Source of the DNA: an uncultured Bacteroides sp. | Lineage (GTDB): Bacteria > Bacteroidota > Bacteroidia > Bacteroidales > Muribaculaceae | Direction: 5' to 3' | Assembly: GCA_964508865.1 (NCBI GenBank) | Contig: CAZDVP010000001.1 | Location: forward strand, 626 to 64,625 | DNA: 64,000 bases | Shown: positions 3,321 to 61,358 of the stretch, piece by piece | Layout: each line of letters begins with the position of its first letter | Position numbering within the stretch: position 1 is the first letter of the stretch | Program-made: the position numbers and the translations under genes | The notes under the pieces: model-generated | The model's database searches: none | The model's input: the letters and a program-made list of their open reading frames with translations, nothing else | What the model was told of the DNA's origin: nothing

Positions 3321-3336
3321 TGTAAATTATTTGATG

Positions 3337-3344
3337 CAAAGTTA
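3337..3344 (-). promoter_or_regulatory. -7 promoter box TAACTTTG for repressor-like gene
   Basis: Matches TAnnTTTG and lies 17 nt upstream of the ATG at 3320. Confidence 0.45.
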
Positions 3345-3352
3345 GCCATAAA

Positions 3353-3369
3353 ATTTGGTAGTTACAAAT
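3353..3369. promoter_or_regulatory. candidate operator ATTTGGTAGTTACAAAT (ATTTG-N7-CAAAT)
   Basis: It sits between the divergent promoters. An exact reverse-complement copy is at 22443..22459 and a copy with one mismatch is at 22007..22023. Confidence 0.5.
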
Positions 3370-3377
3370 ATAAAACA

Positions 3378-4950: not shown

Positions 4951-5724
4951 CTATCGTGTTTCAAAGTCAAACATATTTTCCTGACAGTTGGGGCAATACC
5001 ATTTATAGTCCATCTCAGTCTCGTGAATCTCTGGGAGTAATTCACCGTGACAATGAGGGCAATATTTCTCTTGTCCGATCGGGAGTACCGGATAGAGCCA
5101 GTCTATAGGAACTTCGTCGGGCAGTTCGCCTGTTTGATCGTCGAATAGAATATAGGGGGTAAGGCCAAGCCCGGCTTGACCATCTACACATGGCCCCTCC
5201 CCAATGTATTGAGTAACCTTGAAAATTCCCAATGGTTCATCACCTTCAGCAACGACATAGACTGTTTTATCAGGCTCCAATTCATCAATAAACTGTGCCT
5301 TACGACAACGAATGATATTCTCATCAACAGTGCGGAGATTATCCCAGGCATTAAAATATTCGAGACTTATCCCGGCAGCTGTTAATTCATCCTCGGCCAC
5401 ATCTTCCCAGTCATGATAGCCATAGTCAAGAATTTCAATGAAGTTCTTACCGTCAAAATCAAGAAGTTTGTCCACGAGAATGGTGCCGAAGAAATTAACA
5501 GTCACATTCTCTTCAATAGTGGAAAGCTGGCCGGTGTCTTCATCAGAGTGGCGAATGTCATATCCTATCCATTTTGCCGGAAGAGTTGATTTGTCTATCC
5601 GTCCTTCGATTAGCATTGCAGTTACAATCTCTGTCCTGCTATTGTCAAATCGGGAAGGGATTGTGAGGTCGATAAACTGAGGCTTAAACTCTTTATCATC
5701 TATTAGTTGTTTCCACGTTTTCAT
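4951..5724 (-). CDS. hypothetical protein with C-terminal zinc ribbon
   Basis: The likely start is MKTWKQ at 5724. The C-terminus reads CPHCHGE...YCPNCQ. Confidence 0.55.
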   Translation of the reverse strand: MKTWKQLIDDKEFKPQFIDLTIPSRFDNSRTEIVTAMLIEGRIDKSTLPAKWIGYDIRHSDEDTGQLSTIEENVTVNFFGTILVDKLLDFDGKNFIEILDYGYHDWEDVAEDELTAAGISLEYFNAWDNLRTVDENIIRCRKAQFIDELEPDKTVYVVAEGDEPLGIFKVTQYIGEGPCVDGQAGLGLTPYILFDDQTGELPDEVPIDWLYPVLPIGQEKYCPHCHGELLPEIHETEMDYKWYCPNCQENMFDFETR

Positions 5725-5989
5725 ACTGTCGAACTGTTGGTTTATAAGTCCATTTATAGATTGCGGATTTCTTAGGGGTTGGTACACCATCCCAAATGAG
5801 ATATTCCATAACACGAGGCTTTTCAGATAGAACTATGCCTGGAGTATACTCGTGAGCATAGGTTATCAATTCGTGCAAAGAATCTCCCCAGACTTTGAAC
5901 TCACGGAGTTTATGGTGACTGCCGTCCTCACAATCCAAAGCGGTCATTTGAAGGAATAATTTATTCCATTGAGGTTTTGTATGAATCAT
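5696..5989 (-). CDS. hypothetical protein
   Basis: 97-aa ORF whose start overlaps the upstream stop. Confidence 0.5.
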   Translation of the reverse strand: MIHTKPQWNKLFLQMTALDCEDGSHHKLREFKVWGDSLHELITYAHEYTPGIVLSEKPRVMEYLIWDGVPTPKKSAIYKWTYKPTVRQYENVETTNR

Positions 5990-6288
5990 TTACGTTTCTT
6001 TTTAGGATTTAACTTCCCAGCCTCAAACAGCTGCTGTTTTCTGTTGCGATATTCACGCTTTTTCTGCGCCCAGTATTCAGCAGTACGCTTCGGCTGTTTT
6101 GATCTTGGTTGGGGGTGGAGGATGTTTTGAACGCTACGTTTACTACACCCAAACATCTCAGCCAATTTACGATGGCTAAAACCATCTTCATGCAGGAGCT
6201 TAATTGCTTCTTTCTGTTCTTTCGATAGTTTACATCTCCGGTCCAGTTTGGTTCCTGCGATTTTTATTTTTTCGCTCTTGTAGGGCAT
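5986..6288 (-). CDS. small HTH DNA-binding protein
   Basis: The segment SKEQKEAIKLLHEDGFSHRKLAEMFGCSKRSVQNIL is a resolvase/IS-type HTH pattern. The C-terminus is basic. Confidence 0.5.
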   Translation of the reverse strand: MPYKSEKIKIAGTKLDRRCKLSKEQKEAIKLLHEDGFSHRKLAEMFGCSKRSVQNILHPQPRSKQPKRTAEYWAQKKREYRNRKQQLFEAGKLNPKKKRK

Positions 6289-6365
6289 TTATCTATTTTT
6301 CATACACTAAAAATTAAAGCCGACCTTCTGAATTTGGAGTGATTCTATAAAATGATCAATGTGTT

Positions 6366-6448
6366 GATCCAGAAAGGTGTCTTCTGAAAGAAGACAAATG
6401 TGCCTCCTCCTCTGGAAAGTGGAGGAGGCAATGATTCGTTTCTGGATC
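6366..6448 (+). ncRNA. structured module A1 (three-way junction)
   Basis: P1 is GATCCAGAAA/TTTCTGGATC, P2 is GTCTTC-tgaaa-GAAGAC, and P3 is GCCTCCTCC/GGAGGAGGC. A TCTATAAAATG box lies 14 nt upstream. The strand is inferred from other family members. Confidence 0.4.
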
Positions 6449-6549
6449 TGCTGAACTTAATTCATCAAGTACGGCAAGTTCACTCAAACTGTTTATTATT
6501 TCCCATAGTCAATCAGATACGGAGCGTTTCTATAAATTGTTCATATCAG

Positions 6550-6633
6550 TCCTGCCTACGAAGGATGCTCTGACCACAGAGGTTGGCCGGGAAGGGCCAT
6601 ATCTGTTGGTCCGAGCATCGTGTCTAAGCAGGA
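6550..6633 (+). ncRNA. structured module A2 (long interrupted hairpin)
   Basis: Nested stems TCCTGC/GCAGGA, GATGCTC/GAGCATC, GACC.ACAGA/TCTGT.GGTC and TGGCC/GGCCA. It is preceded by TCTATAAATTGTTCATA. Confidence 0.4.
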
Positions 6634-6716
6634 GCGATTAAATTCATCTGTCTAACTATGTAAATCCGCTCTATTTAGCCATCTTACAAGCCGAGGTGTT
6701 TATCTAATTTGTTCAT

Positions 6717-6808
6717 ATCTGGCGGAATTTGCATTTGTCATGTCATCCGAAAGATGATCTGACAGAGATCAATGTCGGATGACATGGCGAAGATCAAAGC
6801 CGCTGGAT
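6717..6808 (+). ncRNA. structured module A3 (long hairpin)
   Basis: The outer stem ATCTGGCGG/CCGCTGGAT has 2 G.U pairs that work only on the plus strand. The inner 12-bp stem is CATGTCATCCGA/TCGGATGACATG. It is preceded by TAATTTGTTCATA. Confidence 0.45.
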
Positions 6809-6858
6809 TGAATAACGCTTGTCTGATGGCTCACTGACTCACCCAAGTCTTGTTTCAA

Positions 6859-8049
6859 TTATCGACGAGGACGGCGATTCTTATTGATTTCACGCATCAG
6901 TTTTCGTGCCTCGCTCTGCTTGGCCCACTCACGCTTGGTCTCTTCGTAGTTGAAGTTGTTATACTTCAAGAACTCTTTCAGGAGGCCGAGCATTTCGTAA
7001 CCATAGTCGTTCACACCACGATTGACAAGTTCAGTAGCCTTGCGCTCCAGTGCGGCAAGCGACTCTTCCTGCTGAATGAAGTGACGTACATCTCGGTAGG
7101 AGCGGATGCAAGTGTCACCACTTGCGTTGACTTGCAACAGGCAGTTCTCGAAGAGGATTAAGTCCTTGATTGTGTAGTATGCGCCGGCAGCTTTGTATGC
7201 GTTCATAAACGAAGGACACATTTCCGGATAGTAGACGATACCTCGACGAAGTGCACTGAACTTCTGAACCGCAGCATAAAGAGTCTTAGGGAGTTTGGAG
7301 ACGGATATTGTCCGGATTGCAGTTTCAAGCGTTTTGTAGAATGAGAGAAGTTCATCGGTATGGATGCCTTTGCCATTGTTCATCCAATTGCAACGCAGTT
7401 TGACATATTTGCGACCCTTGTGATTACGTTGAGGCATATTCTCGATATACTTCTTCAGACTGCTGAGGAAGTGGTTTGCCATATCAAGAGCGATGGTCTT
7501 GTTGTACCAGCGATTACGGTCTTCGTAACCCTCGGTGTCGTTGTCAGCCGCCATCTTCTGCTGACGCTTCAGGTCGTTGAGAAGAACATCCCAGCTGTAG
7601 TCGTAGCCCTTGCGCTTCAGCATATCGTGAAAACCGACTGTGAGATTGCGACGGCCCTCCTTGTAGAAGAGCATCTGGAGACACTGTGAAGGAATCCAGC
7701 GGCGGACAATGCCCTCGACTTCGATGTAGCCGTCTGCCTCGATTTTATCAATGAGGCCGGCGATGATACGAGCGGCATTAGGAGACGAGAGGGCGGCAGA
7801 GAGTGTCTCCTCAATGCTTGATGCTCCAGAGACAGGAACACGATCGGTGCAGTGAACCGAGGTACAAGCGAGACCGCTGGGTTCAGTGGGAAGCACGACC
7901 GTTCCGAGGCCGCTATCCTTGCCGATAGCCATACCAGACACCGGGTGCTGGTTAGCCGGGATGATGATTTCTGCGCCACAGTTGGAGCAGATTACTTTGG
8001 TTGTAGACTGAGTGTTGTTCATACGATTTGATGATTTCTTTGTTGCCAT
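6859..8049 (-). CDS. hypothetical protein with N-terminal zinc ribbon
   Basis: 396-aa ORF with CSNCGAEIIIP near the N-terminus and a basic C-terminal tail. I recognise no family. Confidence 0.65.
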   Translation of the reverse strand: MATKKSSNRMNNTQSTTKVICSNCGAEIIIPANQHPVSGMAIGKDSGLGTVVLPTEPSGLACTSVHCTDRVPVSGASSIEETLSAALSSPNAARIIAGLIDKIEADGYIEVEGIVRRWIPSQCLQMLFYKEGRRNLTVGFHDMLKRKGYDYSWDVLLNDLKRQQKMAADNDTEGYEDRNRWYNKTIALDMANHFLSSLKKYIENMPQRNHKGRKYVKLRCNWMNNGKGIHTDELLSFYKTLETAIRTISVSKLPKTLYAAVQKFSALRRGIVYYPEMCPSFMNAYKAAGAYYTIKDLILFENCLLQVNASGDTCIRSYRDVRHFIQQEESLAALERKATELVNRGVNDYGYEMLGLLKEFLKYNNFNYEETKREWAKQSEARKLMREINKNRRPRR

Positions 8050-8091: not shown

Positions 8092-8544
8092 TTAGAACCA
8101 GTCCTTTCTGAGGATGAAGGATTTGTCAGTTCCCTGATAGAACCAGTCCTTTGCGAAGAGTTCTTCCGGATTGAACGATCCGTTCAGAAGTGAAAGGAGA
8201 ATGAAGACCTCCAGTTCGGCCTGAGCGACATCTCTTGACTTGGGGTTGTTGAGGGCATCGTGGCCGCACTCCTTTATGAGTTCCGACACTGACAATGCTT
8301 TGAATTTTGCAGTTCGCTCTTTGGCCATTGATGATTTAGTCGGTCGGCTGTACTTGTATGTGTCATACAGATTTTCAACCTCATCCAGCCAAACATCTAA
8401 ATCCGGATGCACAGGGATTCCATACGGTGTTTTGGTTAGATCCACCACCTTTCCGTCGATTATTAGACTTCGTTTCTTGAAGTCTACCCGAAAGCGAGAA
8501 CCTTTGCTCACTTTCTCAATTACATTTTCGTATATTGTGCTCAT
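8092..8544 (-). CDS. hypothetical protein
   Basis: 150-aa ORF with no recognisable motif. Confidence 0.6.
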   Translation of the reverse strand: MSTIYENVIEKVSKGSRFRVDFKKRSLIIDGKVVDLTKTPYGIPVHPDLDVWLDEVENLYDTYKYSRPTKSSMAKERTAKFKALSVSELIKECGHDALNNPKSRDVAQAELEVFILLSLLNGSFNPEELFAKDWFYQGTDKSFILRKDWF

Positions 8545-8604
8545 TGTTAAGAAGTTTTCAAATTAGTTGCTCATCCCGTCGTCACATAAATTTAATTCTT
8601 CCAT

Positions 8605-8699
8605 GATATACCGGCTGAGGTCAGGTCCCGAAGTGTGCAGGACTCGAAAGTCATTCGAGTCGAAACACTTCGTGTCCCTGAGTTGAAAGCCGGTAGATC
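8605..8699 (+). ncRNA. structured module B1 (long interrupted hairpin)
   Basis: Stems GAT.TACCGGCT/AGCCGGTA.ATC, TCAGG/CCTGA, CGAAGTGT/ACACTTCG and GACTCGAA-agtca-TTCGAGTC. A CATAAA box lies 14 nt upstream. Confidence 0.4.
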
Positions 8700-8785
8700 T
8701 AAATAGTCGGGCCTTGCAACTGTTTAGGCTGTGCTACCGTTTGGACTTTCGCACTGGATTGTACGTCACTGTAAATTTGCCAATT

Positions 8786-8874
8786 CATACTGTAGGAGCA
8801 AGCTCCGGCGGCTGAAGGCTTCCAGGAAGTAAGTCCTGGAAGGCGGGGCCGAGGAGCTGGATTGCAACAGTATG
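8786..8874 (+). ncRNA. structured module B2 (long interrupted hairpin)
   Basis: Stems CATACTGT/ACAGTATG, AGCTCC/GGAGCT and GGCTTCCAGGA/TCCTGGAAGGC. It is preceded by TAAATTTG (an exact TAnnTTTG match) and TTCATA. Confidence 0.4.
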
Positions 8875-8957
8875 ACTAAAGTTTCCAGTCTTGATAGCCC
8901 TCTTCGTATGTTCTTGATTTCTCATAGTTTGTAACGCATTTATATAATCTTGTAAAT

Positions 8958-9014
8958 CTATTACCTGTAAGACCACGGTAATATCTCCCACTACCTGTGT
9001 ATTACAGGTAATAG
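8958..9014 (+). ncRNA. structured module B3
   Basis: An 11-bp stem CTATTACCTGT/ACAGGTAATAG, or alternatively two sub-hairpins. It is preceded by TATATAATCTTGT. Confidence 0.3.
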
Positions 9015-9110
9015 TAAAAAGGGAAACTCTTTGAAATCAAGTGCTGCATTGCATAACATTGATTGTTAATGGTGTCACAAACATGGCGCATTGATATAAT
9101 CTGTTCATAG

Positions 9111-9188
9111 GATCCAGTTTAAGAACTTCTGAAGGGCTGGTAGTCATCCAGCCATTCAGAAGTATCTCAGTACACGGCGAACTGGATC
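9111..9188 (+). ncRNA. structured module B4 (paralog of A1)
   Basis: Stems GATCCAGTT/AACTGGATC, ACTTCTGAA/TTCAGAAGT and GGCTGG-tagtcat-CCAGCC. It shares GATCCAG-N8-CTTCTGAA with A1 and is preceded by GATATAATCTGTTCATA. Confidence 0.45.
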
Positions 9189-9290
9189 TTAAATTGAAGT
9201 TTGCCCTCACCATTGTTCATGCGCTTGATAAAGATGGTTCAATTTACGGACTTGGCACGTTGCTGAAATCATCTCATGTGGCCACGAGAA

Positions 9291-9354
9291 GTCTGAATCG
9301 ACGGGACTTGGAACGCCGACAGCAATCGGCGTGGAACGTCCCGTCGATTTGGAT
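9291..9354 (+). ncRNA. structured module B5 (could double as RT terminator)
   Basis: A 12-bp stem AATCGACGGGAC/GTCCCGTCGATT and a 7-bp stem ACGCCGA/TCGGCGT. The outer extension GTCTG/TTGGA(T) needs G.U pairs that work only on the plus strand. Confidence 0.35.
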
Positions 9355-9401
9355 TATTCTCGTGTACCTAAATGTGTCCGTCTCATCTGAACCTGTCGTG
9401 C

Positions 9402-10721
9402 TTAAATATCTCTGACAATTGAATCGTAAAGGTCACGGCCATACAAGAGATTGTTTCTCATACACCCAAGAGAATAAAAGCCTTCGATACGTTCTCCAGT
9501 CTTTTCTCTTAAAGTGCGAATCTTTCGACCCTTACCACGAGCAATGCAACCCTCTTTGCTGGTCTTTACCCAACCGAGACCGCCGATGTCGTTCATGCCT
9601 ACTGATTTCCCAACCTTCACTGCCCTCAGACAGTCAAGTACAAATCCGTTCAATGTGTCAATGTCAGACTTTACATTGATAGTCTTCAGAACACCGGTAG
9701 CCCAGGAGTATTGTCCGTCTCCATAATAGAGCCAAGACTGAACTGAGTGCAAAGCAGTCTGGAATTTGATACCAGTTCGTATTTTTGAGATAGTACGTGA
9801 TGTAACCTCCTTGACGAATGATTTTATTCGATTACTGCTCAGACTGATATTGGCTCCCTTGATTGAGAAGCCGAGGAACTTGAACCAATGGTCATTGTCT
9901 ATGTACTCGACCTTTTTGGGATTGAGTCTCATATCCATTTCCTCCAGTGTTGAAACCAAGACCTCCATTGCTTTCTCATATTCCTTTCCGATGAATAAAA
10001 TGTCATCTGAATACCGGACATAATACCCTCCAGCCTTGCCTCCGTAATTATCGTTAATGACCTTATCGAGGTGGTAAAGAATCGTATCGGCCAACCAGGA
10101 GGCAACAGCGCACCCTTGTTTAAGGCTCTGATAGTGTGTCACCTCTTCTTTAAGTTCGCTGTCATAGAAGAGGTCGAGGTGGTAATACTCCCGGACAATA
10201 TCAATTATTAGGGATTTCCCATATACTTTTTCAATAGCGTCAAACTTAGAGTCAATGTAGCGAATAGGAACCGAGTCAAAATATTTACTCAGGTCGGCTT
10301 TCCATCCGATTATATTATGAGAGACCCCACTTAACTTGTCAATCATCTGACTGGCGTGGGTCACGATTTTGGCACACCCAATTCCTTTTTGATAAGATGT
10401 ACACTGAGGGTGAATCCAACCTCCAGTGGAAGCGGTGAGATCAAAAAGTAGATCGTTGACGATAGAGAGAAACACCCTGTCTCTATCGTTGTTGATGAAT
10501 ACAGTGCGAAACTCGCCCGGAACATCTTTGGGGATTTTGGCGGTGTGAGGACGTTCAATATGATAATTGCCGGACACAATCTCTGCCAGCAAATTCTTAC
10601 GCCCATTGGGAGACATAAGGTCTCTAAGCACCGCCTGACTGATTCCTTTGAAAGCCCCTTTGTTGAGAGCATCCTCCCAACGTTTCTTTTCAAAGAACAT
10701 TTCTAATATCTTGTCTTCCAT
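9402..10721 (-). CDS. reverse transcriptase, non-DGR type (class unassigned)
   Basis: 439 aa with RT motifs IPKDVPGEFRTVF, KADLSKYFDSV, LKQGCAVASWLAD, YVRYSDDILFIG (YxDD), LNPKK and FKFLGFSI. It lacks the DGR-type [LIV]GxxxSQ signature. Confidence 0.85.
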   Translation of the reverse strand: MEDKILEMFFEKKRWEDALNKGAFKGISQAVLRDLMSPNGRKNLLAEIVSGNYHIERPHTAKIPKDVPGEFRTVFINNDRDRVFLSIVNDLLFDLTASTGGWIHPQCTSYQKGIGCAKIVTHASQMIDKLSGVSHNIIGWKADLSKYFDSVPIRYIDSKFDAIEKVYGKSLIIDIVREYYHLDLFYDSELKEEVTHYQSLKQGCAVASWLADTILYHLDKVINDNYGGKAGGYYVRYSDDILFIGKEYEKAMEVLVSTLEEMDMRLNPKKVEYIDNDHWFKFLGFSIKGANISLSSNRIKSFVKEVTSRTISKIRTGIKFQTALHSVQSWLYYGDGQYSWATGVLKTINVKSDIDTLNGFVLDCLRAVKVGKSVGMNDIGGLGWVKTSKEGCIARGKGRKIRTLREKTGERIEGFYSLGCMRNNLLYGRDLYDSIVRDI

Positions 10722-11031: not shown

Positions 11032-11715
11032 TTAAGCCTCACACGCTACAGAGGGACGAACCGTATAGTTGGTATACTTGTTGAAGTAGTTGCCCGTGAT
11101 ACCAGTACCGAAATACACGTACCAGGAGTCGTAGCTACTGTACTCGCTACTCGACCAATGGTTCCCAGCTTGGAGTTCGTCACCACCAGCAGCAACTAAT
11201 GCCTTGTTGACTTCATTGATGAAGAGGAGGATGAGGTGCAGCTGGGCCACACTGGGGATGTACTCGTTGTCCTTCAAACCAATCTTGGGATTGAGATAAG
11301 GACGAAGACGAGCGGTGTTGCCTTCACCATCCCAGTCTGCCATAGCAGCGTTGAATGATTTACGGTATGCTTCCGGGGTTTCGGAACACTCTTTGTCCTC
11401 GTCGATGAGAGCCACATCGTTGCCGTTTGCAGCATCATGGAGGGCAACTGTGGCCACATGGCCCATAGCCTTGACTGCGACACCTACGATTGCCTCCTTT
11501 TTGACGAGACCGATGTTCTCAACTGGCATCAGAGTCTTGTCGGTCATCACATAGTAGATGCCATCACTGGTGGGCTTTACGTTGATGTTCATTGTAGAGG
11601 TGGGTTTGTCGCTTTCAAGCACAAAGTCACACACCTCTTTTGCCTTGTTTACGTCGAAACCGACGGCACCGACTACTGCGGCGCGAAACTCTTGGATTTC
11701 TGTAAGATTTCCCAT
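11032..11715 (-). CDS. DGR target protein 2 (DUF1566/C-type-lectin-like variable C-terminus)
   Basis: 227 aa with C-terminus GNHWSSSEYSSYDSWYVYFGTGITGNYFNKYTNYTVRPSVACEA. This stretch is encoded by VR2, which matches the TR at 62075..62201. Confidence 0.85.
   Translation of the reverse strand: MGNLTEIQEFRAAVVGAVGFDVNKAKEVCDFVLESDKPTSTMNINVKPTSDGIYYVMTDKTLMPVENIGLVKKEAIVGVAVKAMGHVATVALHDAANGNDVALIDEDKECSETPEAYRKSFNAAMADWDGEGNTARLRPYLNPKIGLKDNEYIPSVAQLHLILLFINEVNKALVAAGGDELQAGNHWSSSEYSSYDSWYVYFGTGITGNYFNKYTNYTVRPSVACEA
11044..11170 (-). repeat. DGR variable repeat VR2
   Basis: Hand alignment of 127 nt against TR 62075..62201 gives 14 differences, and every one is at an adenine of the TR. Confidence 0.9.
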
Positions 11716-11731: not shown

Positions 11732-13378
11732 TTATGCGGTTAATTGAAGTTGGTTAGCGATATATTCCATCTCAGAGTAAGCGATGGAGTGGCACCCTGC
11801 GGTGAGGATGTCATTGCGATAAGAAGTGATCGTCCAGTGATCGTCAACTGCACGGCAAATTTCACGAGTGAACTCGGCAGCGTTTTCATGCCATCTCTTG
11901 ACAAGAGACCATAGACGTTTACATTCTTCGATAGTGATTTTGATGCCCTTAGAGGTTTCTACGATAGCACCCTTGATGCGGAGTAAAACATTGCCTCCAT
12001 AGAAGACACTGGGGCTTCCTGTGTTGTAGAGTTTGAAACCTTCGTGATACAACTGACGGACACCTTCCGGGGTCTTTTTCAGTTCGTCGATGTATTCTCG
12101 CTTAGATGCTTCAAGTTCTTCGTAACGTCTCCGTTCTTCTTCGACCTCTCTCCAGTGCTGATCCCAATGAGCACGAGCTTCTTCATGCTGGCGTGTCTCT
12201 TCCTGGAAGCCTTCCAGAACCTCTTGACGCTTGTTGATGACCCACTGACGCTGCTGTTCGAGCGGAAGAGAACAATATGTCTGATACTCTTCATAAGTCA
12301 GACGTTTTTCTCTGTGCCATGAGCAGAAGTGGAAAACGGTGCCGTTGAAGTTGAAGGAAGTTGGCAGATTGTTACGGAATGGACTGAGAGAATCATGTGG
12401 CATCCAGCCTCTCATTCCCAGATGTTTCTCCAGCCGCTCTTTCGCTTTCTCACAAGCAACTTGACGAGCTGCTACTAAGTTAGCGGTGTAGGCTGATTTA
12501 ACATTGGTCTGGCGAAGATTGTACAGCCATTGTATGTAATCACCCTTCTTTTTGTGCTGAGTGATAGATTTCTTGTTGATTGGGTTGTCGGTCACAACTG
12601 GAGAAACCATTCCATGAACAGTCGGCCTTACCATTTCTCCCCTCCAGCCTGGACCCTTAACAAATACCAATGAGCGGAGGCGGCGAGTCTTCTCTGCGTT
12701 TTTCAGAGGCTCGATGCGTTTTTGATAATCGGCCCATGTACCCTCTCCGTTAACCATGTCAACGATAGCCTCAATCGGATCGTTGTCAAGCATCATCTGG
12801 AGGAATTTGCGAACTCGCTTATCTACCTGCTTGTAGGTGCAGTTAATACTCCGCATATATGGAATATGCGTCCTGAAGTCATCGAACTTCATTCGGAGAA
12901 GTTTCTTGACAGTCATGCACCCAGTGACGTTAAACCAGCGGACCATTTCCTCATAACCCTTACGAGAGAAAGGGTGACTGAGAGCATTGCAATCGGGAAC
13001 GAGTAGACAATGACTGTATTCCTCCATCAGGTATCTCATTCCGAACTCTATCAAAGCCTTATTGCGTTGTTCTTTAGTCTGTCCGTGATAGAAGGAGATA
13101 ATACGATACGAACCTCTTTCGTGGCCTTTGAAATTGAATATCTCCTTAGCTATGTCGTTGGGAATCGCGCTTCTGACCCAACCTTGATGGCCAGAGGTCG
13201 TATTGCTGTAACTTGCAGTGTCCAGCAGAAATAGTACCTTGCCGTTGATCTCAATTCGCTGTCCGATGCAGGTGCTGTATGAATATATACAGCCATCATC
13301 GTGACTCATGTGAGACGAGTTGTGCGCCTTGTCGAGATTGTGCGCCCAAGCATGGGCAACCGATGAATAATCACTCAT
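11732..13378 (-). CDS. hypothetical protein
   Basis: 548-aa ORF. The N-terminus reads AHAWAHN...SYSTCIG...SNTTSGHQGW and the centre is a charged coiled-coil. I cannot name a family with confidence. Confidence 0.65.
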   Translation of the reverse strand: MSDYSSVAHAWAHNLDKAHNSSHMSHDDGCIYSYSTCIGQRIEINGKVLFLLDTASYSNTTSGHQGWVRSAIPNDIAKEIFNFKGHERGSYRIISFYHGQTKEQRNKALIEFGMRYLMEEYSHCLLVPDCNALSHPFSRKGYEEMVRWFNVTGCMTVKKLLRMKFDDFRTHIPYMRSINCTYKQVDKRVRKFLQMMLDNDPIEAIVDMVNGEGTWADYQKRIEPLKNAEKTRRLRSLVFVKGPGWRGEMVRPTVHGMVSPVVTDNPINKKSITQHKKKGDYIQWLYNLRQTNVKSAYTANLVAARQVACEKAKERLEKHLGMRGWMPHDSLSPFRNNLPTSFNFNGTVFHFCSWHREKRLTYEEYQTYCSLPLEQQRQWVINKRQEVLEGFQEETRQHEEARAHWDQHWREVEEERRRYEELEASKREYIDELKKTPEGVRQLYHEGFKLYNTGSPSVFYGGNVLLRIKGAIVETSKGIKITIEECKRLWSLVKRWHENAAEFTREICRAVDDHWTITSYRNDILTAGCHSIAYSEMEYIANQLQLTA

Positions 13379-21985: not shown

Positions 21986-21990
21986 CGATG

Positions 21991-21998
21991 CAAAGTTA
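21991..21998 (-). promoter_or_regulatory. -7 promoter box TAACTTTG (CTAACTTTGC)
   Basis: It has the same 10-mer as the other early promoters and points into the ORF-free tract. Confidence 0.45.
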
Positions 21999-22006
21999 GG
22001 CACAAT

Positions 22007-22023
22007 ATTTGAAACTACCAAAT
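22007..22023. promoter_or_regulatory. operator copy (ATTTGAAACTACCAAAT)
   Basis: It has one mismatch to the reverse complement of 3353..3369 and the same flanking ATAAAAC. Confidence 0.45.
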
Positions 22024-22099
22024 ATAAAACGTTAAGAAATGTTAACGAGATTTTCAAAATAGGTCTATCTAATTGATAATCAGTTAGAAAAAATTTTTG

Positions 22100-24029: not shown

Positions 24030-26018
24030 TTATTTGAATTGGGAGATCGTATCGCTGGCTAAGGAATCGTCATAGCCATGAGCGACATTCCAACGATGAA
24101 CTTTTCGAGCAGAGAAAAGGTTCTTAGTCATCTTCACATCTGAGCCTTGAATCTGACGTTCCGTTTGCGATAAGGTAGCAAGAAATTCTTCGACTGGTAT
24201 CTCTTGCTCGTTGCACCACATCACTACCGAGCCTTTGTAGATATATCCTGGGAGAGAGCGGCCTTCTACTCGCTGTTGTTCGGTATTGGTGAAATACTCC
24301 GGTCGATACTCTGAGTCAAATCCAACGAAGGTCTGGTAAAATCTACGGATAATCGTTTCGATGGGAGTCAACCTCTCTTCGGCTCCATTCTCCATGAGAT
24401 TTTTAGTAAACGCTCTGTCAAGTCGGGTCTCGGCTGCAATCTCTGAACGAGTCTTGGGAACTGGAGTGTTCTCAATAACCGTAGCCTCGATGTTCCGAAA
24501 GCGTTTCAAAGAGACCTTTAACCCACGCTTGCCATCGACCTCAGCCTCTTCCCAATCGAAGATGAAATGAGGTTGGAGATCTTCGATGGATGTGAAGCCA
24601 AGTTTGTAGGTGCCGTATGAATCCTCATACACCCCCTTCTCAACGGCACCGGCCATATCGTCATAGATTTGCTCGGCCAGTTTCAAAAGGTCTTCTACTG
24701 GAAGTACAGCATCAATCATTTTGAGGTCGTTGATAGAGTCGCTTTCAATCGGATCTCCATTCTCGTCATAATCCCTCGTATCGTAGTTCTCGGCATAGAG
24801 ATCCCAGCAACCCCACCAAAACAGATTGATGAATAATTTAACTGGAGAATCGTATGTGACAGCCGGATCAAGAGATGCAGTTATTTTCTGTGCTTCCGAT
24901 TCAGTGAAGTAAGGCTTGGTCTTATAGGGATTGTTGATTTTAGGTTTAACCTGGGAAATACGAGTGGAACGTTTTCCAAAGGGTTCTTCACCATTCAATT
25001 CAACAATTCCCAGAGAATCCTCAAATTCTTCAGAATCCGAAGAAGGCTGGAAGCCTTCCACATTGGATAGGGGTTTAAGGGGGAAGTCCTCTTCCCCCTT
25101 TTCAACAGGCGAAGCTGGTTTATTATTTATTTTATTATATATATTATTACTGTTGTGCAGAAATGCACAGCTTTTTGGCCCTTCGGTGTGCATTTCTGCA
25201 CACCCCCCTGTGTAAAAATGCACAGCCAGTTGAGCCAAAGTGCAGAGCAAATTCTGGTCAATTTTGGTGTTTTCTGAGAAACTCCCAGTGTAAAATGACT
25301 CTTTCATGGATTCGTACTCATCGTTGTGCATTTCTGCACAGGGAGTGGTAGAAAATACCATATCAAAAGTGGTTTTGTCTGTGCATTTTTGCACAATCTC
25401 TGCGAACTGCTGAAGAAATCTGTGCATTTTTACACCGGTGTGTGTGCTTTTACACATAGTTGTGTATTTCTGCACACCGTTGTGTATTTCTGCACAACTT
25501 TCGCTTTCTGAATCGTTTTGCTGTGCATTTTTACACACCTCTGTGTATTTTTGCACAGGGTTGAGCATAATTGACGATCCTTGTAGGCCGGCAAGTTCTT
25601 TTCGACACCCTTGCTCTATGGCTCCTTCCAGTGCTGAGATTCCTTCTTTTTTGAATCGCTGGGTGAAAGAGTTCTGTTCTGTGTAATCAAGGGACTCGAA
25701 GTGTTTGACAAGACTGACAAATTCATCGCCATTAAAGATGATGGCATTGGGCCGCGTCTTAATTAGTCCAAGACCTTCCAGTTTCGCAAGAGAAGCGGTA
25801 ACTGTTCGCCGGTTGAGACCGAGAATTTCACTTATACGTTTTTGGCTTACAAATATTGTTTGCTCCAGTAATGAAGTCTTCATTTGCTGACGATACTCAT
25901 CCGCCAGATAGATGAGTATGATTTTGTCCGGAGCGGATTCTGCCAACTGAAAAATCGCTTTGTAGTATAATCCGTACCGAACTGTTTTTGGTTCAGGATT
26001 TGACATAGCGCATTTCAA
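24030..26018 (-). CDS. wHTH replication-initiator-like protein with internal repeat region
   Basis: 662 aa. The N-terminus is winged-helix-like (VSQKRISEILGLNRRTVTASLAKLEGLGLIK). The central CAEMHN/VQKYT peptide repeats are encoded by the palindrome array. Confidence 0.6.
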   Translation of the reverse strand: MKCAMSNPEPKTVRYGLYYKAIFQLAESAPDKIILIYLADEYRQQMKTSLLEQTIFVSQKRISEILGLNRRTVTASLAKLEGLGLIKTRPNAIIFNGDEFVSLVKHFESLDYTEQNSFTQRFKKEGISALEGAIEQGCRKELAGLQGSSIMLNPVQKYTEVCKNAQQNDSESESCAEIHNGVQKYTTMCKSTHTGVKMHRFLQQFAEIVQKCTDKTTFDMVFSTTPCAEMHNDEYESMKESFYTGSFSENTKIDQNLLCTLAQLAVHFYTGGCAEMHTEGPKSCAFLHNSNNIYNKINNKPASPVEKGEEDFPLKPLSNVEGFQPSSDSEEFEDSLGIVELNGEEPFGKRSTRISQVKPKINNPYKTKPYFTESEAQKITASLDPAVTYDSPVKLFINLFWWGCWDLYAENYDTRDYDENGDPIESDSINDLKMIDAVLPVEDLLKLAEQIYDDMAGAVEKGVYEDSYGTYKLGFTSIEDLQPHFIFDWEEAEVDGKRGLKVSLKRFRNIEATVIENTPVPKTRSEIAAETRLDRAFTKNLMENGAEERLTPIETIIRRFYQTFVGFDSEYRPEYFTNTEQQRVEGRSLPGYIYKGSVVMWCNEQEIPVEEFLATLSQTERQIQGSDVKMTKNLFSARKVHRWNVAHGYDDSLASDTISQFK
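25154..25557. repeat. array of 11 copies of 16-bp palindrome TGTG[CT]A-N4-T[GA]CACA
   Basis: Copies start at 25154, 25187, 25209, 25325, 25380, 25421, 25441, 25461, 25481, 25522 and 25542, all inside the CDS. Confidence 0.75.
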
Positions 26019-54755: not shown

Positions 54756-57700
54756 ATGGCTAAAAAAGCAATTGCAGTAAAAGGTTACATCCCTGACATC
54801 AGCACTCCCTGGGAGTGGATAGATGAGAATGGGCAATTGAAAGCCTATGATGGAGAGTCTGTAGAGAACTTGCTACGGCGTGTTATTTCTGACTTGCAGA
54901 CCACCAAAGTAGGTTATTTCGTCATTCCTCAAAATAAGGAAACTGACGGATATTATCACTTATGGGGATTTGCCAGTCAAAGCGATTACAGCGATTATCT
55001 TACTGATCCTGTTAGTAACGCTTCGCTACGTCTGCTTAACACTGCAATTCCGATTTTGGAGGAGCAGGGAGGAGTCAGCAATATCGTTACTCTGACTCGA
55101 AACTCAGCGGCAAGTATCGTTACCAGCAAAGCAGAGGCAAGCGTAGAGGTATCATATCTGTGGCAACAGTACAATCCTATTACTAAGGAAACTACAGACC
55201 AGGATGAAGATGCCACTATCATTGTATCTTGCCGAACACAAAATGCAAATGGCACATGGGGAGCGTGGGATTCCAGTAAGGAGTTTACCGTCTCTATCCA
55301 ATCTGGACAGACTAAGACCATCGACCTAAGTAAATTGCTGACTTCTGACGCAACTTATCAGATTCGTTTGGTTGCAACCGGTGAAACAAGCGAGATTTCT
55401 GCCAGCCCTGTAACTGTAAGCATTGTGTATTCAAACGTGGCGGCAAAGTATGAAGGCCAGATTGCAACCGCTTATCAAGGCAGTAGCATCCAGCTTCCTT
55501 TCCGTATTTCAGGTAGCGTACAAAAGCAGCTTAGAATCAAAATTGGTAACTATACCAAAAACTTCACACTTGGCACTACGACTTATACCGATAATACGTA
55601 TGGTGCTACTTTGACTCAGGCTGAATTTGGACTAACTCGTGGGGCTGTCAAGGCTGAAGCATGGATCGCGTTTGGTGAAGGATATGCTGCTGAAACGGAG
55701 CATCAAGAGTTTCAGTTTATTTACCTCCCTGAGAATGACACCATCACTACTCCTATTTTGGCTGTCACGGACATCATGGAGGAATTTCAGAACTGGACCC
55801 GTGCAACGATTTTCAGATATGCCATATACAATCCGCAGTCTGACGAAACATTCTTACGCATAACCCTTCAGGATCGCACAACAGGTCAAATCTACATCCA
55901 AAAGGATATAACCTGTATGAATGGTGAAAGTTATGAGTTTGACGAGAACTTCGGCATGGAGTATGAAGGAGATGAGCAGCCTACTACTATTCAGGCCCAG
56001 GCTACCTTTGTCAACGCCTCCGGCCTGACTTATGGTAACAATATTAACTTCACTGTTGACAATTCAGAGAACTTTGCTCCAACAAAAGGCGCAAATTTGA
56101 TTCTTTCGCCTGAAAAACATAGTCTTGTTATTGATGGCGAGGATTACGACGTTGCTGATCTTATCACTGACAAAGATGATACCAACAGCGGATGGAAGAC
56201 AAATACTGAGTTTGATTCAACCGGAGCGCAAGTCAATGTACCTGTCCTCAGTATTGCTGCCGGCAACAAACTGACGATTCCGTATGAACTTTTCAATTCA
56301 AATACCGGCCACAACAACAATGGTGTCGAAGGTTCGATTACGATAGAATTTGACATAAAAGTAAAAAATATCGTAAGTAACGCTCCAATCATTGACGCTT
56401 CAGCACCCTTTGACAAGGCGTACACCGGATTGAAGTTCTACCCGACAAGAGCAGTGTGTCTTAGCCAGAATAATAATTCAGAGGATATTTGCGATGCGAC
56501 TTTCTGTGAAGAGACACGTGAGCACATAGCGATTAACATTATCCGCAATCTTCGTGGTGAAGGATTGAATCTGGTTCGTTTCTACATCAATGGTAAATCG
56601 AACCGTTCATACATTTACACTGATGAGGATAATTTCATACCTATCGGTGCAAATGGCGCACAAAATCTTGTTATTGGCTCTGATGATGCCGATATTGATA
56701 TTTATGGATTGCGTGTTTATAAAGATCAGCAGCTTGGCTCCGTTCAGATTCAGAATGACTATATGGCTGGTATGCCGACCATTGAAGATAAGAAAAAGTT
56801 CAAACGTTTCAATTCAATCTACAACGGTACGGAAATCAGTTACGACCAGTGTAATGCGATGGGTCTTAACACGATTCTTCGTAAAATTCCACAGGGCGGT
56901 CATTATCCTTCTCGTGAAAATCAGGACAAACAGAAGAACGTTACCATAGATGTTCGTATCTTCAAAGAACGTGGTAATGCTGAAAGTCTTGACCGTAAGC
57001 ATAGTGGCACATTTGTAGGTATGACCGATAAAGGTCAGGGAACCAGCGCGAAAGGTTACTATTGGTGGAATATCTCTGATGGCTTTGAAGATGACGTAGA
57101 GATAGCTGCCGACGCATACGACCCCTCAGATCCTACCCATTACACAGCTGATGGTAAATATTTCAAAAAGATTTCGTACTTCAATTCATTAGACGGTATC
57201 AGTCAGGTTTATGCAAGCAAGTATGAAATCGAGGATGGCCGAGGGGGAATAACTAAACTGGTTGGTAAGTGTAATTACGCTTCTCCCATGCAGAGCCATA
57301 AATTAGGAGGCGTTTGGGCTTACGATGAACTTTGGCAACTTCTTGTTAACGATGGTTCCGGCGGTCGTACCGTGCTTCAAGATACTCATGCCGCTTGTTA
57401 TGAACTGCCCTTCCTTTGCTTTTATCAAATAGGCAATGGTACTCCTATATTCTGTGGATTCCAGACTTGGGGTAGCGGCAAAGGCGATAAAAAGACCTTT
57501 GGCTACGACAAGAAGAAATCCCCAGGATATATGTGTGTGTCCGGAGCGGATAATGGTGCCGTTGCTGCTCTATTCCAAATGCCTTGGTTGGTAAGCAAAA
57601 ACACTCAGGGCGCATGGAGCGGCAATGTCTACGCTAAGAGCGTGACAATCAATACCGGTGACGTTAAGAATGGATATTGTTATAAGAGCGGTGTCAGTGA

Positions 57701-60700
57701 CAACCTTGCGTTTGAGGTTGAGATAGGTAGCAAATATGATGGCGGAGAGACCGATAAAGGGGTTCTCCGAATCGCAGATGAAGCAAAAGGAGAAACCGAG
57801 ACAACTCTTTATACTCATTTTGCTGATTTCTGTAATTTCATCTGCTCTTGTTCACCGTTACTGAAACCGTATGCAGGCACTGAGGCTCAACTCATTGCTG
57901 ATAGTGCCAATCTTAAAAATGATCATCAGTATTGGTTGTTTAATACCGGGCCGGATCGTTATAAAGTTTACTACTACAATCCTCTGACCGCTAAGTTTGA
58001 ACAGCTTCCAAAGGTTGCTACAAAATGGGGCGCAGATGGTCGTGCGTCTCAATTTGGTTCTCCTACTTTAACGTCACAGTTGGCTGGTGTAACCGTTACC
58101 ATTGACTCTGTTGAAGGTAAGACAAGCATGACATTAGAAGAGGCAATGGACACGCTTGGTACGTCAGATATGAATGTAGTTAACGACCTCTTCTGTAAGG
58201 CTCGTGTAGCATACTTCAAAGCTCATGCTGATAGTTACCTCGATGTTGTCGATGTAATCTTCCACCAGTGCTTCTGTAAATTGTTCGGAGCGACTGATAA
58301 TCGCACCAAGAATACTTATTACTGGATAGACCCGGCAATAGATAAACTTGTACGTCTGAAGCAGGATGACCTTGACACAATTCTGGCTACCGATAACCAG
58401 GGCCGTCAGACTAAGCCTTACTATGTGCTCGAACATACTAAGGATAGTAACGGCAGCAACTACTGGAATGGTGAAAACAATATCCTGTACACTCTGATTG
58501 AACGTGCATATCCTGATCGTATGCGTAACATGATGCGTGATATATTCTCCAGAATGTCTCAGATTGCAGGCAGCGTGGAGGAATATATGCAGAAGCGTTT
58601 CTACTGGGTGCAGGAATATTTCCCTGCTGTAGCCTACAACGAGACCAGTCGTGTACTTTATGAGGTGGCTCAGGTGAAATTGATGAACGGCCTCATTGAT
58701 GTCAGTCAAGACCCGATTACTCAGGCTGTGGGAGATCAGCTGGAGTGCGAAAAGCAGTTCATGTCACAGCGTCTTCCTATGCTGATGTCATGGTGTGAAT
58801 ATGAAACGGGTGGTGATGGAACCCTATCTTTCCGTTCCGTAGACACACTTGATGGCTCTCAGGCGGTTTACGACCTCGAATATACGGCTTATCAATACAT
58901 TTATCCGAAAATGTCTCTTGGTGGCGCAATGCCTTCAATTTATGCCAAGGTAAATGGAGAATGGGTTTTACAGGACGGTAGTGAACCATATCTATGCGCT
59001 CCTGGTGAAACGGTGCGAATGGTGGTTACAGCCAGTGTGTCCAATCAGCAATTTACCTTACGTTGGCTGCATTATGCACAACGGATTGGTAATATTGGAG
59101 CACTCTCTTGTGGAGATGAGGGTTCTATTACGATTGTTGGTAAAAGACTTCGTAAACTGGAATGTTGGTCTCCTGATGGCACTCCTATTGAGTTTCATCC
59201 TAAAGGCATTTCAATTTTGAACTGTCGCAATCTGGAAGAAGTCAACTTGACCAACGCTTCTTCTTTCTCCGGCGGCTTTTCTTTTGATTTGCCTCGACTA
59301 AAGAAACTGTTGCTCAAAGGGTCTGCCTACACCAGCGTAACATTGCCTAAAACCTCTACCTTAACACAAGTCTCATATCCGGCATCTATTAACTCGATTA
59401 TCGTAAATGGTCAGCCGAACCTGAGTAGTATTTCTGTAGAGAGCATGGCGAATGTTCGTACACTGAGGGTGATCGGACAGCACAAGATTCAGACCCAGAC
59501 TCAGCCTCTCGTGCAACTTGCATATTCTCAGGGGCAGAATGTTAATTCTGTAACTATGGAGAATATCGCATGGGTCGGTATGTCTGTGAACGTATTGATT
59601 TGGCTTCAGAATATGAAGGCGAGTCTTACCGGGTCAATTGGTTTGTCTGATAATTTGACTTATGCGACAAAGGCATCGTTGGTAGAAACTTATGGTGATA
59701 TTGACAGTCAGACTAATGATTTGTATGTAACTTACAATAAATACAACATCACCGGCTTCAATATTAAGGGTAACACCTATATGTCTCAACTTGGATTATA
59801 TCCCTATACGATTGCTCCTGTGCCGACACGAGGTAACGATGTGGCTATCAAAAATGGCAAACTCGATATAGAATGGTCAATAGAAGAAGGTGGTCAAATA
59901 TATGCAACCTTTGAAGATGCAGTGGCCGGCTTGTTGAAAGTCTCACAGCTGGATGCAAGTGGTACCGACACTCGCTATGCTATCACTTGTAAATTGACCC
60001 GAACTAATGGCCAGACTATTACCAATTCTGTTCAAGTTGGATTCTACCTTCGAGTTCCTAAAATCGGAGACTTTGCTTATGCAGATGGTACCTTCGATGA
60101 CCAGTTCCAGCGAGACAAGACGGTTGTAGGCGTGGTGTACAAGATCGACCCGATGTATCAAGGCGAAGGTGATGAAGCACCTACCACTTACTCCGGTTAT
60201 AACAAGCCTACAAATGCAGTGCTTGAAAATAAGCAGCTTGTTGGCTATAGAGTGCTGATTGACAGCAAAGAAGATGCGGTAATTAAAAGCACTGATTCTT
60301 TCATCAATACAGCAAGTAATGCTTGGGGTCTTTATAATGAAGGCTCAACTGGAGTACATGGAACGAATGGTTTTACTACTGAGATGGGCAATAAGATTCA
60401 GGCTCAAATAGGTAGTAATGCTTTCGACACTCCGATTCCGAATATTGGAAACACGAGCGAATGGTCATCCGGTTGGTATTTGCATCGAGGCACCTACTTC
60501 AATAGTGAGGAATCCGATGGGTTCAAACAGTTCTCATCTGGTGCCCCAGCAGACTGGGATGGTAAAAACAAAACCCGGAAGATTGTACGTCACATGGAAA
60601 GTATCTTCAATGGTTATCTGATGGGTGAGTTCAACGAGGACATTCTTACAGAATGGGTTGAAGAGACTGAGAATGGCAATATCGTTCATCAGATTACTGA

Positions 60701-61358
60701 ACTTCCTACAAATCTGGAAGAGTTAGGCAATATGATGGAGATCCTTCAGAAAGCAAATGGAAATCTTTCTATTTTCCGTCAGTTTGCTTTCCCTGCTGCC
60801 TACTCCTGCTATCTCTATGAACCTGTGCTGAAAGAAGGCGAAACACTTGATCCTCAGTTTGCACGTAACAACTGGTACCTCCCGGCAGAGGGTGAATTGA
60901 TGCGTCAATTCTCTTTCTATGGTGTATCTCGCACTGGTGGCTTAGGAACGGCGCAAGCAACCGGTCAGAACACTCAGCCAAATAGAAGTGTGATTGACGC
61001 AATGATTCAGGCGGCGCACGACTCATCGGAAAGCAATCCGATTAAGCAGACTGTTAAGCAATCAAGTATTGATGCTTCCAGTTATTCTGCTGCTGAAATG
61101 TCTGCTATCAATCAGTATTTCCAGACATTGACTGAATGTGAAATGCCGATTTACTCTCTTGTGCTATGGAGAGCATTGGTTGGGGGCAATTCTTCGCCCT
61201 TTATCAATCATACAGCTGGGTACCATTGGTCGAGTAGCGAGAACAGTAGCAACGGCTCCTGGTACGTGAGTTTCGGTACTGGTAACACGTACTACTACAA
61301 CAACAAGTATGGCTACTATACGGTTCGTCCCTCTGTAGCGTATGTTTTCATGCTTTAA
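54756..61358 (+). CDS. giant tail fibre / receptor-binding protein, DGR target 1
   Basis: 2200 aa. The C-terminal DUF1566/C-type-lectin-like module (NNWYLPAEGELMRQF...GYHWSSSENSSNGSWYVSFGTGNTYYYNNKYGYYTVRPSVA) is encoded by VR1. Confidence 0.85.
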   Translation: MAKKAIAVKGYIPDISTPWEWIDENGQLKAYDGESVENLLRRVISDLQTTKVGYFVIPQNKETDGYYHLWGFASQSDYSDYLTDPVSNASLRLLNTAIPILEEQGGVSNIVTLTRNSAASIVTSKAEASVEVSYLWQQYNPITKETTDQDEDATIIVSCRTQNANGTWGAWDSSKEFTVSIQSGQTKTIDLSKLLTSDATYQIRLVATGETSEISASPVTVSIVYSNVAAKYEGQIATAYQGSSIQLPFRISGSVQKQLRIKIGNYTKNFTLGTTTYTDNTYGATLTQAEFGLTRGAVKAEAWIAFGEGYAAETEHQEFQFIYLPENDTITTPILAVTDIMEEFQNWTRATIFRYAIYNPQSDETFLRITLQDRTTGQIYIQKDITCMNGESYEFDENFGMEYEGDEQPTTIQAQATFVNASGLTYGNNINFTVDNSENFAPTKGANLILSPEKHSLVIDGEDYDVADLITDKDDTNSGWKTNTEFDSTGAQVNVPVLSIAAGNKLTIPYELFNSNTGHNNNGVEGSITIEFDIKVKNIVSNAPIIDASAPFDKAYTGLKFYPTRAVCLSQNNNSEDICDATFCEETREHIAINIIRNLRGEGLNLVRFYINGKSNRSYIYTDEDNFIPIGANGAQNLVIGSDDADIDIYGLRVYKDQQLGSVQIQNDYMAGMPTIEDKKKFKRFNSIYNGTEISYDQCNAMGLNTILRKIPQGGHYPSRENQDKQKNVTIDVRIFKERGNAESLDRKHSGTFVGMTDKGQGTSAKGYYWWNISDGFEDDVEIAADAYDPSDPTHYTADGKYFKKISYFNSLDGISQVYASKYEIEDGRGGITKLVGKCNYASPMQSHKLGGVWAYDELWQLLVNDGSGGRTVLQDTHAACYELPFLCFYQIGNGTPIFCGFQTWGSGKGDKKTFGYDKKKSPGYMCVSGADNGAVAALFQMPWLVSKNTQGAWSGNVYAKSVTINTGDVKNGYCYKSGVSDNLAFEVEIGSKYDGGETDKGVLRIADEAKGETETTLYTHFADFCNFICSCSPLLKPYAGTEAQLIADSANLKNDHQYWLFNTGPDRYKVYYYNPLTAKFEQLPKVATKWGADGRASQFGSPTLTSQLAGVTVTIDSVEGKTSMTLEEAMDTLGTSDMNVVNDLFCKARVAYFKAHADSYLDVVDVIFHQCFCKLFGATDNRTKNTYYWIDPAIDKLVRLKQDDLDTILATDNQGRQTKPYYVLEHTKDSNGSNYWNGENNILYTLIERAYPDRMRNMMRDIFSRMSQIAGSVEEYMQKRFYWVQEYFPAVAYNETSRVLYEVAQVKLMNGLIDVSQDPITQAVGDQLECEKQFMSQRLPMLMSWCEYETGGDGTLSFRSVDTLDGSQAVYDLEYTAYQYIYPKMSLGGAMPSIYAKVNGEWVLQDGSEPYLCAPGETVRMVVTASVSNQQFTLRWLHYAQRIGNIGALSCGDEGSITIVGKRLRKLECWSPDGTPIEFHPKGISILNCRNLEEVNLTNASSFSGGFSFDLPRLKKLLLKGSAYTSVTLPKTSTLTQVSYPASINSIIVNGQPNLSSISVESMANVRTLRVIGQHKIQTQTQPLVQLAYSQGQNVNSVTMENIAWVGMSVNVLIWLQNMKASLTGSIGLSDNLTYATKASLVETYGDIDSQTNDLYVTYNKYNITGFNIKGNTYMSQLGLYPYTIAPVPTRGNDVAIKNGKLDIEWSIEEGGQIYATFEDAVAGLLKVSQLDASGTDTRYAITCKLTRTNGQTITNSVQVGFYLRVPKIGDFAYADGTFDDQFQRDKTVVGVVYKIDPMYQGEGDEAPTTYSGYNKPTNAVLENKQLVGYRVLIDSKEDAVIKSTDSFINTASNAWGLYNEGSTGVHGTNGFTTEMGNKIQAQIGSNAFDTPIPNIGNTSEWSSGWYLHRGTYFNSEESDGFKQFSSGAPADWDGKNKTRKIVRHMESIFNGYLMGEFNEDILTEWVEETENGNIVHQITELPTNLEELGNMMEILQKANGNLSIFRQFAFPAAYSCYLYEPVLKEGETLDPQFARNNWYLPAEGELMRQFSFYGVSRTGGLGTAQATGQNTQPNRSVIDAMIQAAHDSSESNPIKQTVKQSSIDASSYSAAEMSAINQYFQTLTECEMPIYSLVLWRALVGGNSSPFINHTAGYHWSSSENSSNGSWYVSFGTGNTYYYNNKYGYYTVRPSVAYVFML
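61209..61340 (+). repeat. DGR variable repeat VR1
   Basis: Hand alignment of 132 nt against TR 62070..62201 gives 14 differences, all at adenines of the TR. Confidence 0.9.

Follow-up and report, generated by a model that had tools for sequence, protein, structure and literature searches.

The window analysed here is a 64,000-nt stretch of DNA. Its source contig is 96,956 bp long, and the host element is a Bacteroidota phage of ~97 kb. Bacteroidota promoters, a DGR, relatives in IMG/VR and a cultured relative on Bacteroides salyersiae identified it as a phage of gut Bacteroidota, and a megablast search against GenBank phages returned no match. A 44-nt element was found three times (1437–1480, 3333–3376 on the minus strand, and 21987–22030), each time with a perfect Bacteroidota-type promoter (TTTG-N20-TAACTTTG), which points to a Bacteroidota host and to transcription units driven by the host RNA polymerase. 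The DGR was complete, with a TR at 62070–62205, VR1 at 61209–61344, VR2 at 11038–11170 (minus strand) and a reverse transcriptase (RT) at 61947–63431, and its 62-kb copy had an A wherever the two other copies vary. VR1 formed the end of a 2,200-aa ORF (54756–61358), and VR2 the end of a 227-aa ORF (11032–11715) located ~50 kb away. At 25169–25600, at least 5–8 copies of the palindromic TGTGCA(T)TTTCTGCACA were spaced by 20–138 nt; this iteron- or operator-like cluster may be a replication origin or a regulatory region.

Close downstream of VR2 lies the operon of a UG27-class RT. Together with the complete DGR, this operon gives the phage two unrelated RT systems. The genes flanking array A were all on the minus strand, and the order was RT, array B, cluster 346, cluster 337, array A and a small HTH gene (Table 1). 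Residues 1–438 of the RT aligned to positions 1–419 of the 420 in the RT_UG27 profile, so that the protein is full length. UG17 and Drt9 were among its next-best PADLOC matches, and the nearest solved structure by sequence was that of DRT2 (9c0i). The RT fell outside the retron clade, and a retron was rejected, with E-values of about 1e-9 to 1e-12 for retron models compared to 5e-174 for UG27. For the cluster 346 protein, the AF2 model had a pLDDT of 90.6 and Foldseek found no PDB fold match; the cluster 337 protein had no PDB match either by a profile search of PDB sequences or by fold (predicted structure and Foldseek). The two accessory proteins had no detectable structural relatives and thus gave no clue to their function. 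A gene for a sigma-70 region-4/HTH protein lay no more than a few kb from the UG27 genes in L001–L006, L055, L062, L063 and L081–L088, though not in all lineages, and its product could be a candidate regulator of the box elements described below. Both arrays belong to the UG27 RT operon, and this membership changes the most likely identity of the elements.

Table 1 Features of the UG27 operon and of array A in the window.
Feature	Position	Strand	Description
Small sigma-70 region-4/HTH protein, 100 aa	5986..6288	-	Pfam Sigma70_r4_2, E 4.5e-7; abuts array A
Array A	6289..6858	+	Three ~177-nt units; from cluster-337 gene stop to HTH gene start
Box of unit A1	6336..6358	+	GGAGTGATTCTATAAAATGATCA; promoter-like; box HMM match; almost invariant between lineages
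Module A1	6366..6448	+	Three-way junction; closing stem GATCCAGAA / TTCTGGATC
Linker 1	6449..6520	+	Degenerate tail CTTAAT at 6456-6461
Box of unit A2	6521..6543	+	GGAGCGTTTCTATAAATTGTTCA; top-scoring box match in the window
Module A2	6550..6633	+	Long bulged hairpin; stem extendable outward to 6545-6638
Tail of A2	6638..6643	+	TTAAAT, a YTAAAY motif; immediately follows the closing stem
Box of unit A3	6693..6715	+	GAGGTGTTTATCTAATTTGTTCA
Module A3	6717..6808	+	Long hairpin; closing stem ATCTGGCGG / CCGCTGGAT with invariant tandem U.G / G.U
UG27 accessory protein, cluster 337	6859..8049	-	PADLOC RTas337, E 1.2e-60; N-terminal CxxC motif
UG27 accessory protein, cluster 346	8092..8544	-	PADLOC RTas346, E 1.6e-31
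Array B	8545..9401	+	Five units in the RT-to-cluster-346 spacer
UG27-class reverse transcriptase	9402..10721	-	PADLOC RT_UG27, E 5.2e-174; Pfam RVT_1

UG27 is a class 2 UG/Abi RT that always occurs with clusters 346 and 337, and among the UG/Abi RTs it is the only group that resides mainly in phages and not in the defence islands of bacteria (Mestre et al. 2022, NAR, PMC9226505). After dereplication, more than 1,400 gut viral genomes were reported to carry it, with no enrichment in defence islands, and one ncRNA "with three long stem-loops" was predicted in the RT-346 spacer, for which validation was called for (Mestre et al. 2022, PMC9226505). That spacer is the location of array B, which in our phage was 857 nt long, free of ORFs and kept in relatives, with five structured units whose boxes lie at about 8579, 8763, 8935, 9085 and about 9250. 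The tract after cluster 337, the position of array A, is not mentioned in Mestre et al. 2022 (PMC9226505). The system described there and ours share RT_UG27 with clusters 346 and 337, a gut phage background and stem-loops in a conserved non-coding spacer, which in both cases are predictions. In contrast to the single ncRNA confined to the RT-346 spacer in PMC9226505, the phage studied here also has the tract after cluster 337, and its eight ~177-nt units, each with a box and a tail, lie antisense to the operon.

Array A was free of conserved ORFs, as the initial annotation had proposed, with just two mechanical ORFs of 43 and 57 aa. Linker 1, in which frames are open, differed in close relatives by indels of 1, 4 and 7 nt and is therefore non-coding; these frameshifts ruled out a small ORF in the linker. 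A tract of 553–570 nt matching array A was kept in five related lineages. The three modules that had been proposed were recovered at the same positions, and folding likewise returned the three-way junction claimed for A1. Compared to dinucleotide shuffles, the minimum free energies (MFEs) were -44.5 kcal/mol for A1 (z -7.5), -46.6 kcal/mol for A2 (z -6.1) and -49.6 kcal/mol for A3 on the plus strand (z -8.2), the last being -33.8 on the minus strand.

Several familiar classes of element did not account for the tract. ARAGORN found no tRNA or tmRNA genes, and no Rfam family reached its gathering score, with only chance-level matches up to an E-value of 10. The array did not qualify as a CRISPR array, given that the repeated box is degenerate and the units are ~177 nt long; unlike the unrelated spacers of CRISPR arrays, its "spacers" are structured modules whose orthologues are kept from phage to phage. 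None of the modules had a second copy in the window, and the DGR has its own TR and its own RT, which ruled out the modules as a DGR template repeat. Direct repeats specific to each unit around the modules were also rejected: the likeness between box and tail was generic (a TAAA core), and by eye there was no covariation per unit. Complementarity of the kind expected of guides was absent between the modules and the remaining window apart from one 16-mer, in which 8814–8829 (the stem of module B2) was perfectly complementary over 16 nt to 12199–12214 within the coding part of the ORF 11732–13378. This match had a blastn-short E-value of 0.001 for one of 11 queries and may be due to chance.

The two tracts were built alike, as tandem units of ~177 nt with a 23-nt box, a module of 85–95 nt, a YTAAAY tail and a conserved linker of ~60 nt. 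After profile convergence the box consensus was GGCGCGTTTCTATAATTTTTTCA. Within array A the boxes were 185 and 175 nt apart, and the clustering of box-to-box distances at a mode of 171–191 nt shows tandem repetition of ~177-nt units in both tracts. The closing stem began 0–8 nt past the box. A box upstream of each module had been noted before, and the profile bore this out: a search of the 64-kb window with the box HMM placed four of five matches at modules (6337, 6521, 6693 and 9085), and GCGTTTCTATAAWTTGTTCAT with up to three mismatches matched only at 6524 and 6696, where 0.00 matches were expected. TTCATA before A2 and A3 was likewise present as described. Being confined to the modules, the box is specific to these units and does not represent a general class of phage promoter.

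At the 3' side of the modules, the YTAAAY tail peaked 90–99 nt after the box, where it was found in 11 of 43 units compared to about 1 expected (~11-fold), and the tracts held 66 such motifs on the plus strand and 21 on the minus strand. The motif CTGGAT(Y)(K) stood at the 3' end of five of the eight units, always on the plus strand, and five of its 14 copies in the window fell inside the 1.4 kb of both tracts. This 3' motif is the feature that the units really have in common. The proposal of the initial annotation that A1 is a paralog of B4 did not hold: whole-module similarity between the two was at the level of chance (z about 0.2 or less), and the best pairs were A2–A3 (z 3.5) and A1–A3 (z 3.0). 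The 5' CTTCTGAA cited as common to A1 and B4 is in B4 a covarying stem arm, with CAGCTGAG or GATTCATG in its place in close relatives, which makes the match to A1 specific to this lineage.

The extended box logo had a TATAAT-like hexamer, a gap of 6 nt and CA at the base of the stem, with a conserved TGGnGCG immediately upstream; a -35-like TCA was weakly visible ~17 nt 5' of the hexamer. In a scan for a sigma-70-like consensus, two boxes of array B scored 10 of 12, with overall counts no higher than in shuffled sequences. The array boxes do not resemble the host-type promoters of Bacteroidota (TTTG-N20-TAnnTTTG) present at other places in the window. Judged by its layout, the box is a predicted promoter for transcription of the plus strand. 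Since it is unlike host-type promoters and confined to these units, it could instead be a recognition site for RNA or protein. No intrinsic terminator was found 3' of any module.

To compare the constraints on different parts of the tract, we aligned array A among six lineages. Boxes, closing stems and a large part of the linkers did not vary, and the module interiors, though heavily substituted, folded alike in every one of these lineages. Relative to the window sequence, identity in the five related lineages was 0.85–0.96 for the leader, 0.77–0.84 for linker 1, 0.71–0.91 for the genes of 337, 346 and the RT, and 0.36–0.98 for the module interiors. In four more distant lineages, the interiors were 36–71% identical compared to 71–80% for the flanking genes. 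The identity of linker 1 equalled or exceeded that of coding DNA in more distant lineages, and a core of at least 30 nt, ATTCATCAAGTACGGC[A/G]AGTTCACTCAAACT, was nearly invariant.

Helices outlasted these changes in sequence. In A1, seven of 29 pairs were altered on both sides, 92.5% of cells remained paired compared to 36–52% with slid partners, and the covariation score lay above all 500 of 500 shuffles; in A2, 12 of 24 pairs were altered on both sides. Selection thus acts on structure in the modules and on sequence in the stems, boxes and linkers, in agreement with the earlier suggestion of a diverging family under structural constraint at two loci. The reading of A3 has to be amended. Its arms ATCTGG and CTGGAT do pair on the plus strand through a tandem of U.G and G.U, but this wobble is the same in all six lineages and therefore records no compensatory change, contrary to what had been claimed.

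Conserved helices of this kind could also belong to DNA elements, such as a replication origin, a packaging site or an array of protein-binding sites, with only a positional link to the RT. The regular ~177-nt spacing, the conserved linkers and the strand-symmetric, almost purely Watson-Crick pairing are what such elements would be expected to show. However, the conserved bulges, internal loops and three-way junction are ill-suited to cruciforms, the loop bases are strongly asymmetric between strands, and the arrays travel with the UG27 genes over unrelated phage backbones. The cluster at 25.2–25.6 kb is moreover a separate and more typical iteron-like region. We consider an identity as DNA elements very improbable.

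Which strand folds was assessed by several measures. MFE favoured the plus strand in 93 of 119 domains (compared to 26 for the minus strand), but nearly the same bias was seen in shuffled sequences because the strand is rich in G+T, and after correction with shuffles the plus advantage was -0.6 kcal/mol (p about 0.04). In A3, with its invariant tandem U.G / G.U, the plus strand was more stable by 7–16 kcal/mol in six of six lineages. For pairs predicted on both strands, G.U and A.C counts were neutral (16 and 12), as was the polarity of polymorphism events (28 and 33). Hairpin loops gave a clear signal that does not depend on base composition: with close lineages collapsed to one, 26 loops were of the G..A type and two of the mirror T..C type (p 3e-6), and there were 16 GNNA tetraloops and none of the mirror type. 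The box profile matched 54 times on the window-plus strand and once on the opposite strand in 46 dereplicated tracts, and over whole 11-kb loci 55 of 57 matches were on the window-plus strand. The orientation of box and tail and the loop asymmetry together indicate that the folded strand has window-plus polarity. The constraint on the plus strand put forward in the initial annotation is hence probably right, on account of the boxes and G..A loops; its argument from wobble pairs fails, and the corresponding tests are neutral. To judge from these signals, the units probably run antisense to the RT operon. The polarity fits RNA or plus-sense single-stranded DNA (cDNA) alike, two products that sequence cannot separate.

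An antisense direction within operon spacers and a promoter-like box for each unit would also be expected of cis-antisense regulatory RNAs, or of processing sites, that control how the mRNA of the RT operon is expressed or cleaved and are not substrates of the RT. However, pairing with an mRNA requires no conserved fold, and the folds here were kept by compensatory change. Eight units with individually conserved identities would be excessive for such a role, and the arrays co-occur with the RT in hundreds of phages. A cis-antisense function therefore appears improbable.

Relatives of the system were collected through the cluster 337 protein, the search for which gave graded relatives from 94% down to 27% identity. 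A further 80 loci with 28–51% identity were obtained from IMG/VR with an alignment as query; a single-protein query gave none. In contigs L081–L089 (337 identity of 68–100%) both spacers were kept, with array B at ~850 nt and array A at ~553–570 nt. The order RT, gap, 346 and 337 was constant in all loci that carried the RT, across 337 identities of 28–100%, and the RT-346 gap that holds array B varied from about 210 to 1,410 nt. Most of the lineages sampled had one or more structured domains after the 337 gene, which makes array A a regular part of the system. The cultured Bacteroides phage BS-TP1 (L090, PQ571274.1), whose host is Bacteroides salyersiae, carried the UG27 system in the same gene order, and its unannotated RT-346 gap of 1,350 nt had boxes ~170 nt apart on the antisense strand. 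The UG27 RT of BS-TP1 (5001–6263) is labelled "tail protein" in GenBank, and an additional 133-aa gene lies between its 346 and 337 homologues.

Array A is best regarded as one more cluster of ncRNA units associated with UG27, and the literature we read contains no earlier report of it. A bioRxiv preprint of September 2026 (10.64898/2026.09.22.753630) may already cover UG27 ncRNAs, and perhaps array A among them, to judge from word counts in its text (74 for UG27, 53 for ncRNA and 24 for cDNA). Dependence on structured ncRNAs is a trait of class 2 UG RTs, according to statements quoted from Tang 2024, Wilkinson 2024 and others.

On balance we favour, with moderate confidence, the reading that the tract is the second of two arrays of small structured ncRNA units of the UG27 RT system, which partner the RT. 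Each box would act as a promoter, with the TATAAT-like hexamer, the 6-nt gap and the CA setting the start of transcription at the base of the closing stem, and each unit would yield its own plus-sense RNA of about 90–100 nt. These RNAs may bind the UG27 RT and the two accessory proteins and, by analogy with DRT2, DRT9 and DRT10, could serve as scaffold and/or template for cDNA synthesis. From eight distinct units (three in array A and five in array B), a set of differing RNA or cDNA products would result. Several observations weigh against this model, namely the lack of an intrinsic terminator after the modules, the neutral outcome of the wobble-based strand tests and the strand-symmetric pairing.

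The RTs with which the analogy is drawn resemble the present system in part. DRT2 (UG2) is a class 2 UG/Abi RT whose structured ncRNA, with stem-loops inside a closing stem, is a rolling-circle template. It has a single ncRNA located upstream of the RT on the same strand, and in contrast to the phage-borne UG27 it is a bacterial defence system without accessory proteins. The DRT2 concatemer carries a stop-free ORF. We looked for a Neo-like ORF in module concatemers, an approximate test given that the template boundaries were assumed, and found stop-free frames in some modules that were lost in close relatives; as these frames are not conserved, a coding concatemer of the DRT2 style is unlikely. 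DRT9 (UG28) and DRT10 (UG17) also belong to the class 2 RTs, require a structured ncRNA and make repeated copies of a short template, but they have one ncRNA per system and a bacterial defence context with effectors such as SLATT, and their short template motif has no identifiable counterpart in the arrays. Neither a template nor a priming site was identifiable in the units. Retron msr-msd elements share with the units an RT-linked RNA with terminal inverted repeats and internal hairpins, and their cDNA product also folds; the units here differ in being shorter, multiple, downstream of the RT and on the opposite strand, and in having no Rfam match.

The main rival to the ncRNA reading assigns the function to the other strand. 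The functional RNA would be the minus-strand operon transcript, and the modules would be structured segments of the RT-346-337 mRNA that are copied by the RT. The start site of copying would be the complement of the box, located 3' of each module in the transcript, and the plus-strand signals would reflect folded single-stranded cDNA, comparable to retron msDNA. The tracts do lie inside or at the end of the minus-strand operon, and since no host-type Bacteroidota promoter was found on the minus strand of this region, read-through of the operon is likely. To our knowledge, the class 2 ncRNAs described so far share the strand of their RT, which counts against an antisense model and in favour of an mRNA template. 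Loops closed by G..A, such as GNA, are stable in single-stranded DNA too. The repeated use of the term cDNA beside UG27 in the text of the above preprint (10.64898/2026.09.22.753630) points in the same direction.

The helices of both arrays were 92% Watson-Crick and less than 2% G.U across all lineages, counting pairs predicted on both strands. This share of G.U is unusually low for structured RNA and would fit folding of both an RNA and its complement (cDNA). Near-pure Watson-Crick, strand-symmetric helices are indeed expected if a template and its copy must both fold. We otherwise count the very low G.U as a feature explained by neither model, yet copying of the mRNA would be able to explain it. 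The strong conservation of linker 1 is accounted for by neither the ncRNA units nor the mRNA template. Against copying of the mRNA, the elements of the box are spaced as in a promoter (hexamer, 6 nt, CA and stem base), and we know of no precedent for a 23-nt priming signal repeated eight times. We therefore judge an mRNA template to be unlikely.

Under the favoured ncRNA reading, the non-coding partner of UG27 is two arrays of discrete units and not a single RNA. The conserved box and tail and the probable antisense direction specify what to clone and sequence, and on which strand, and the cultured carrier BS-TP1 makes tests of the UG27 arrays practical. A broader proposal, which we put forward only tentatively, is that a single RT in UG27 phages draws its various templates or scaffolds from a library of small structured RNAs, which evolve fast, are encoded antisense and have a promoter each. 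If such a library exists, eight RNAs in two clusters flanking the accessory genes would give rise to varied folded cDNAs or RNPs, which might act, for example, as decoys against host defences. No such multi-RNA architecture is seen in retrons, DRT2, DRT9 or DRT10.
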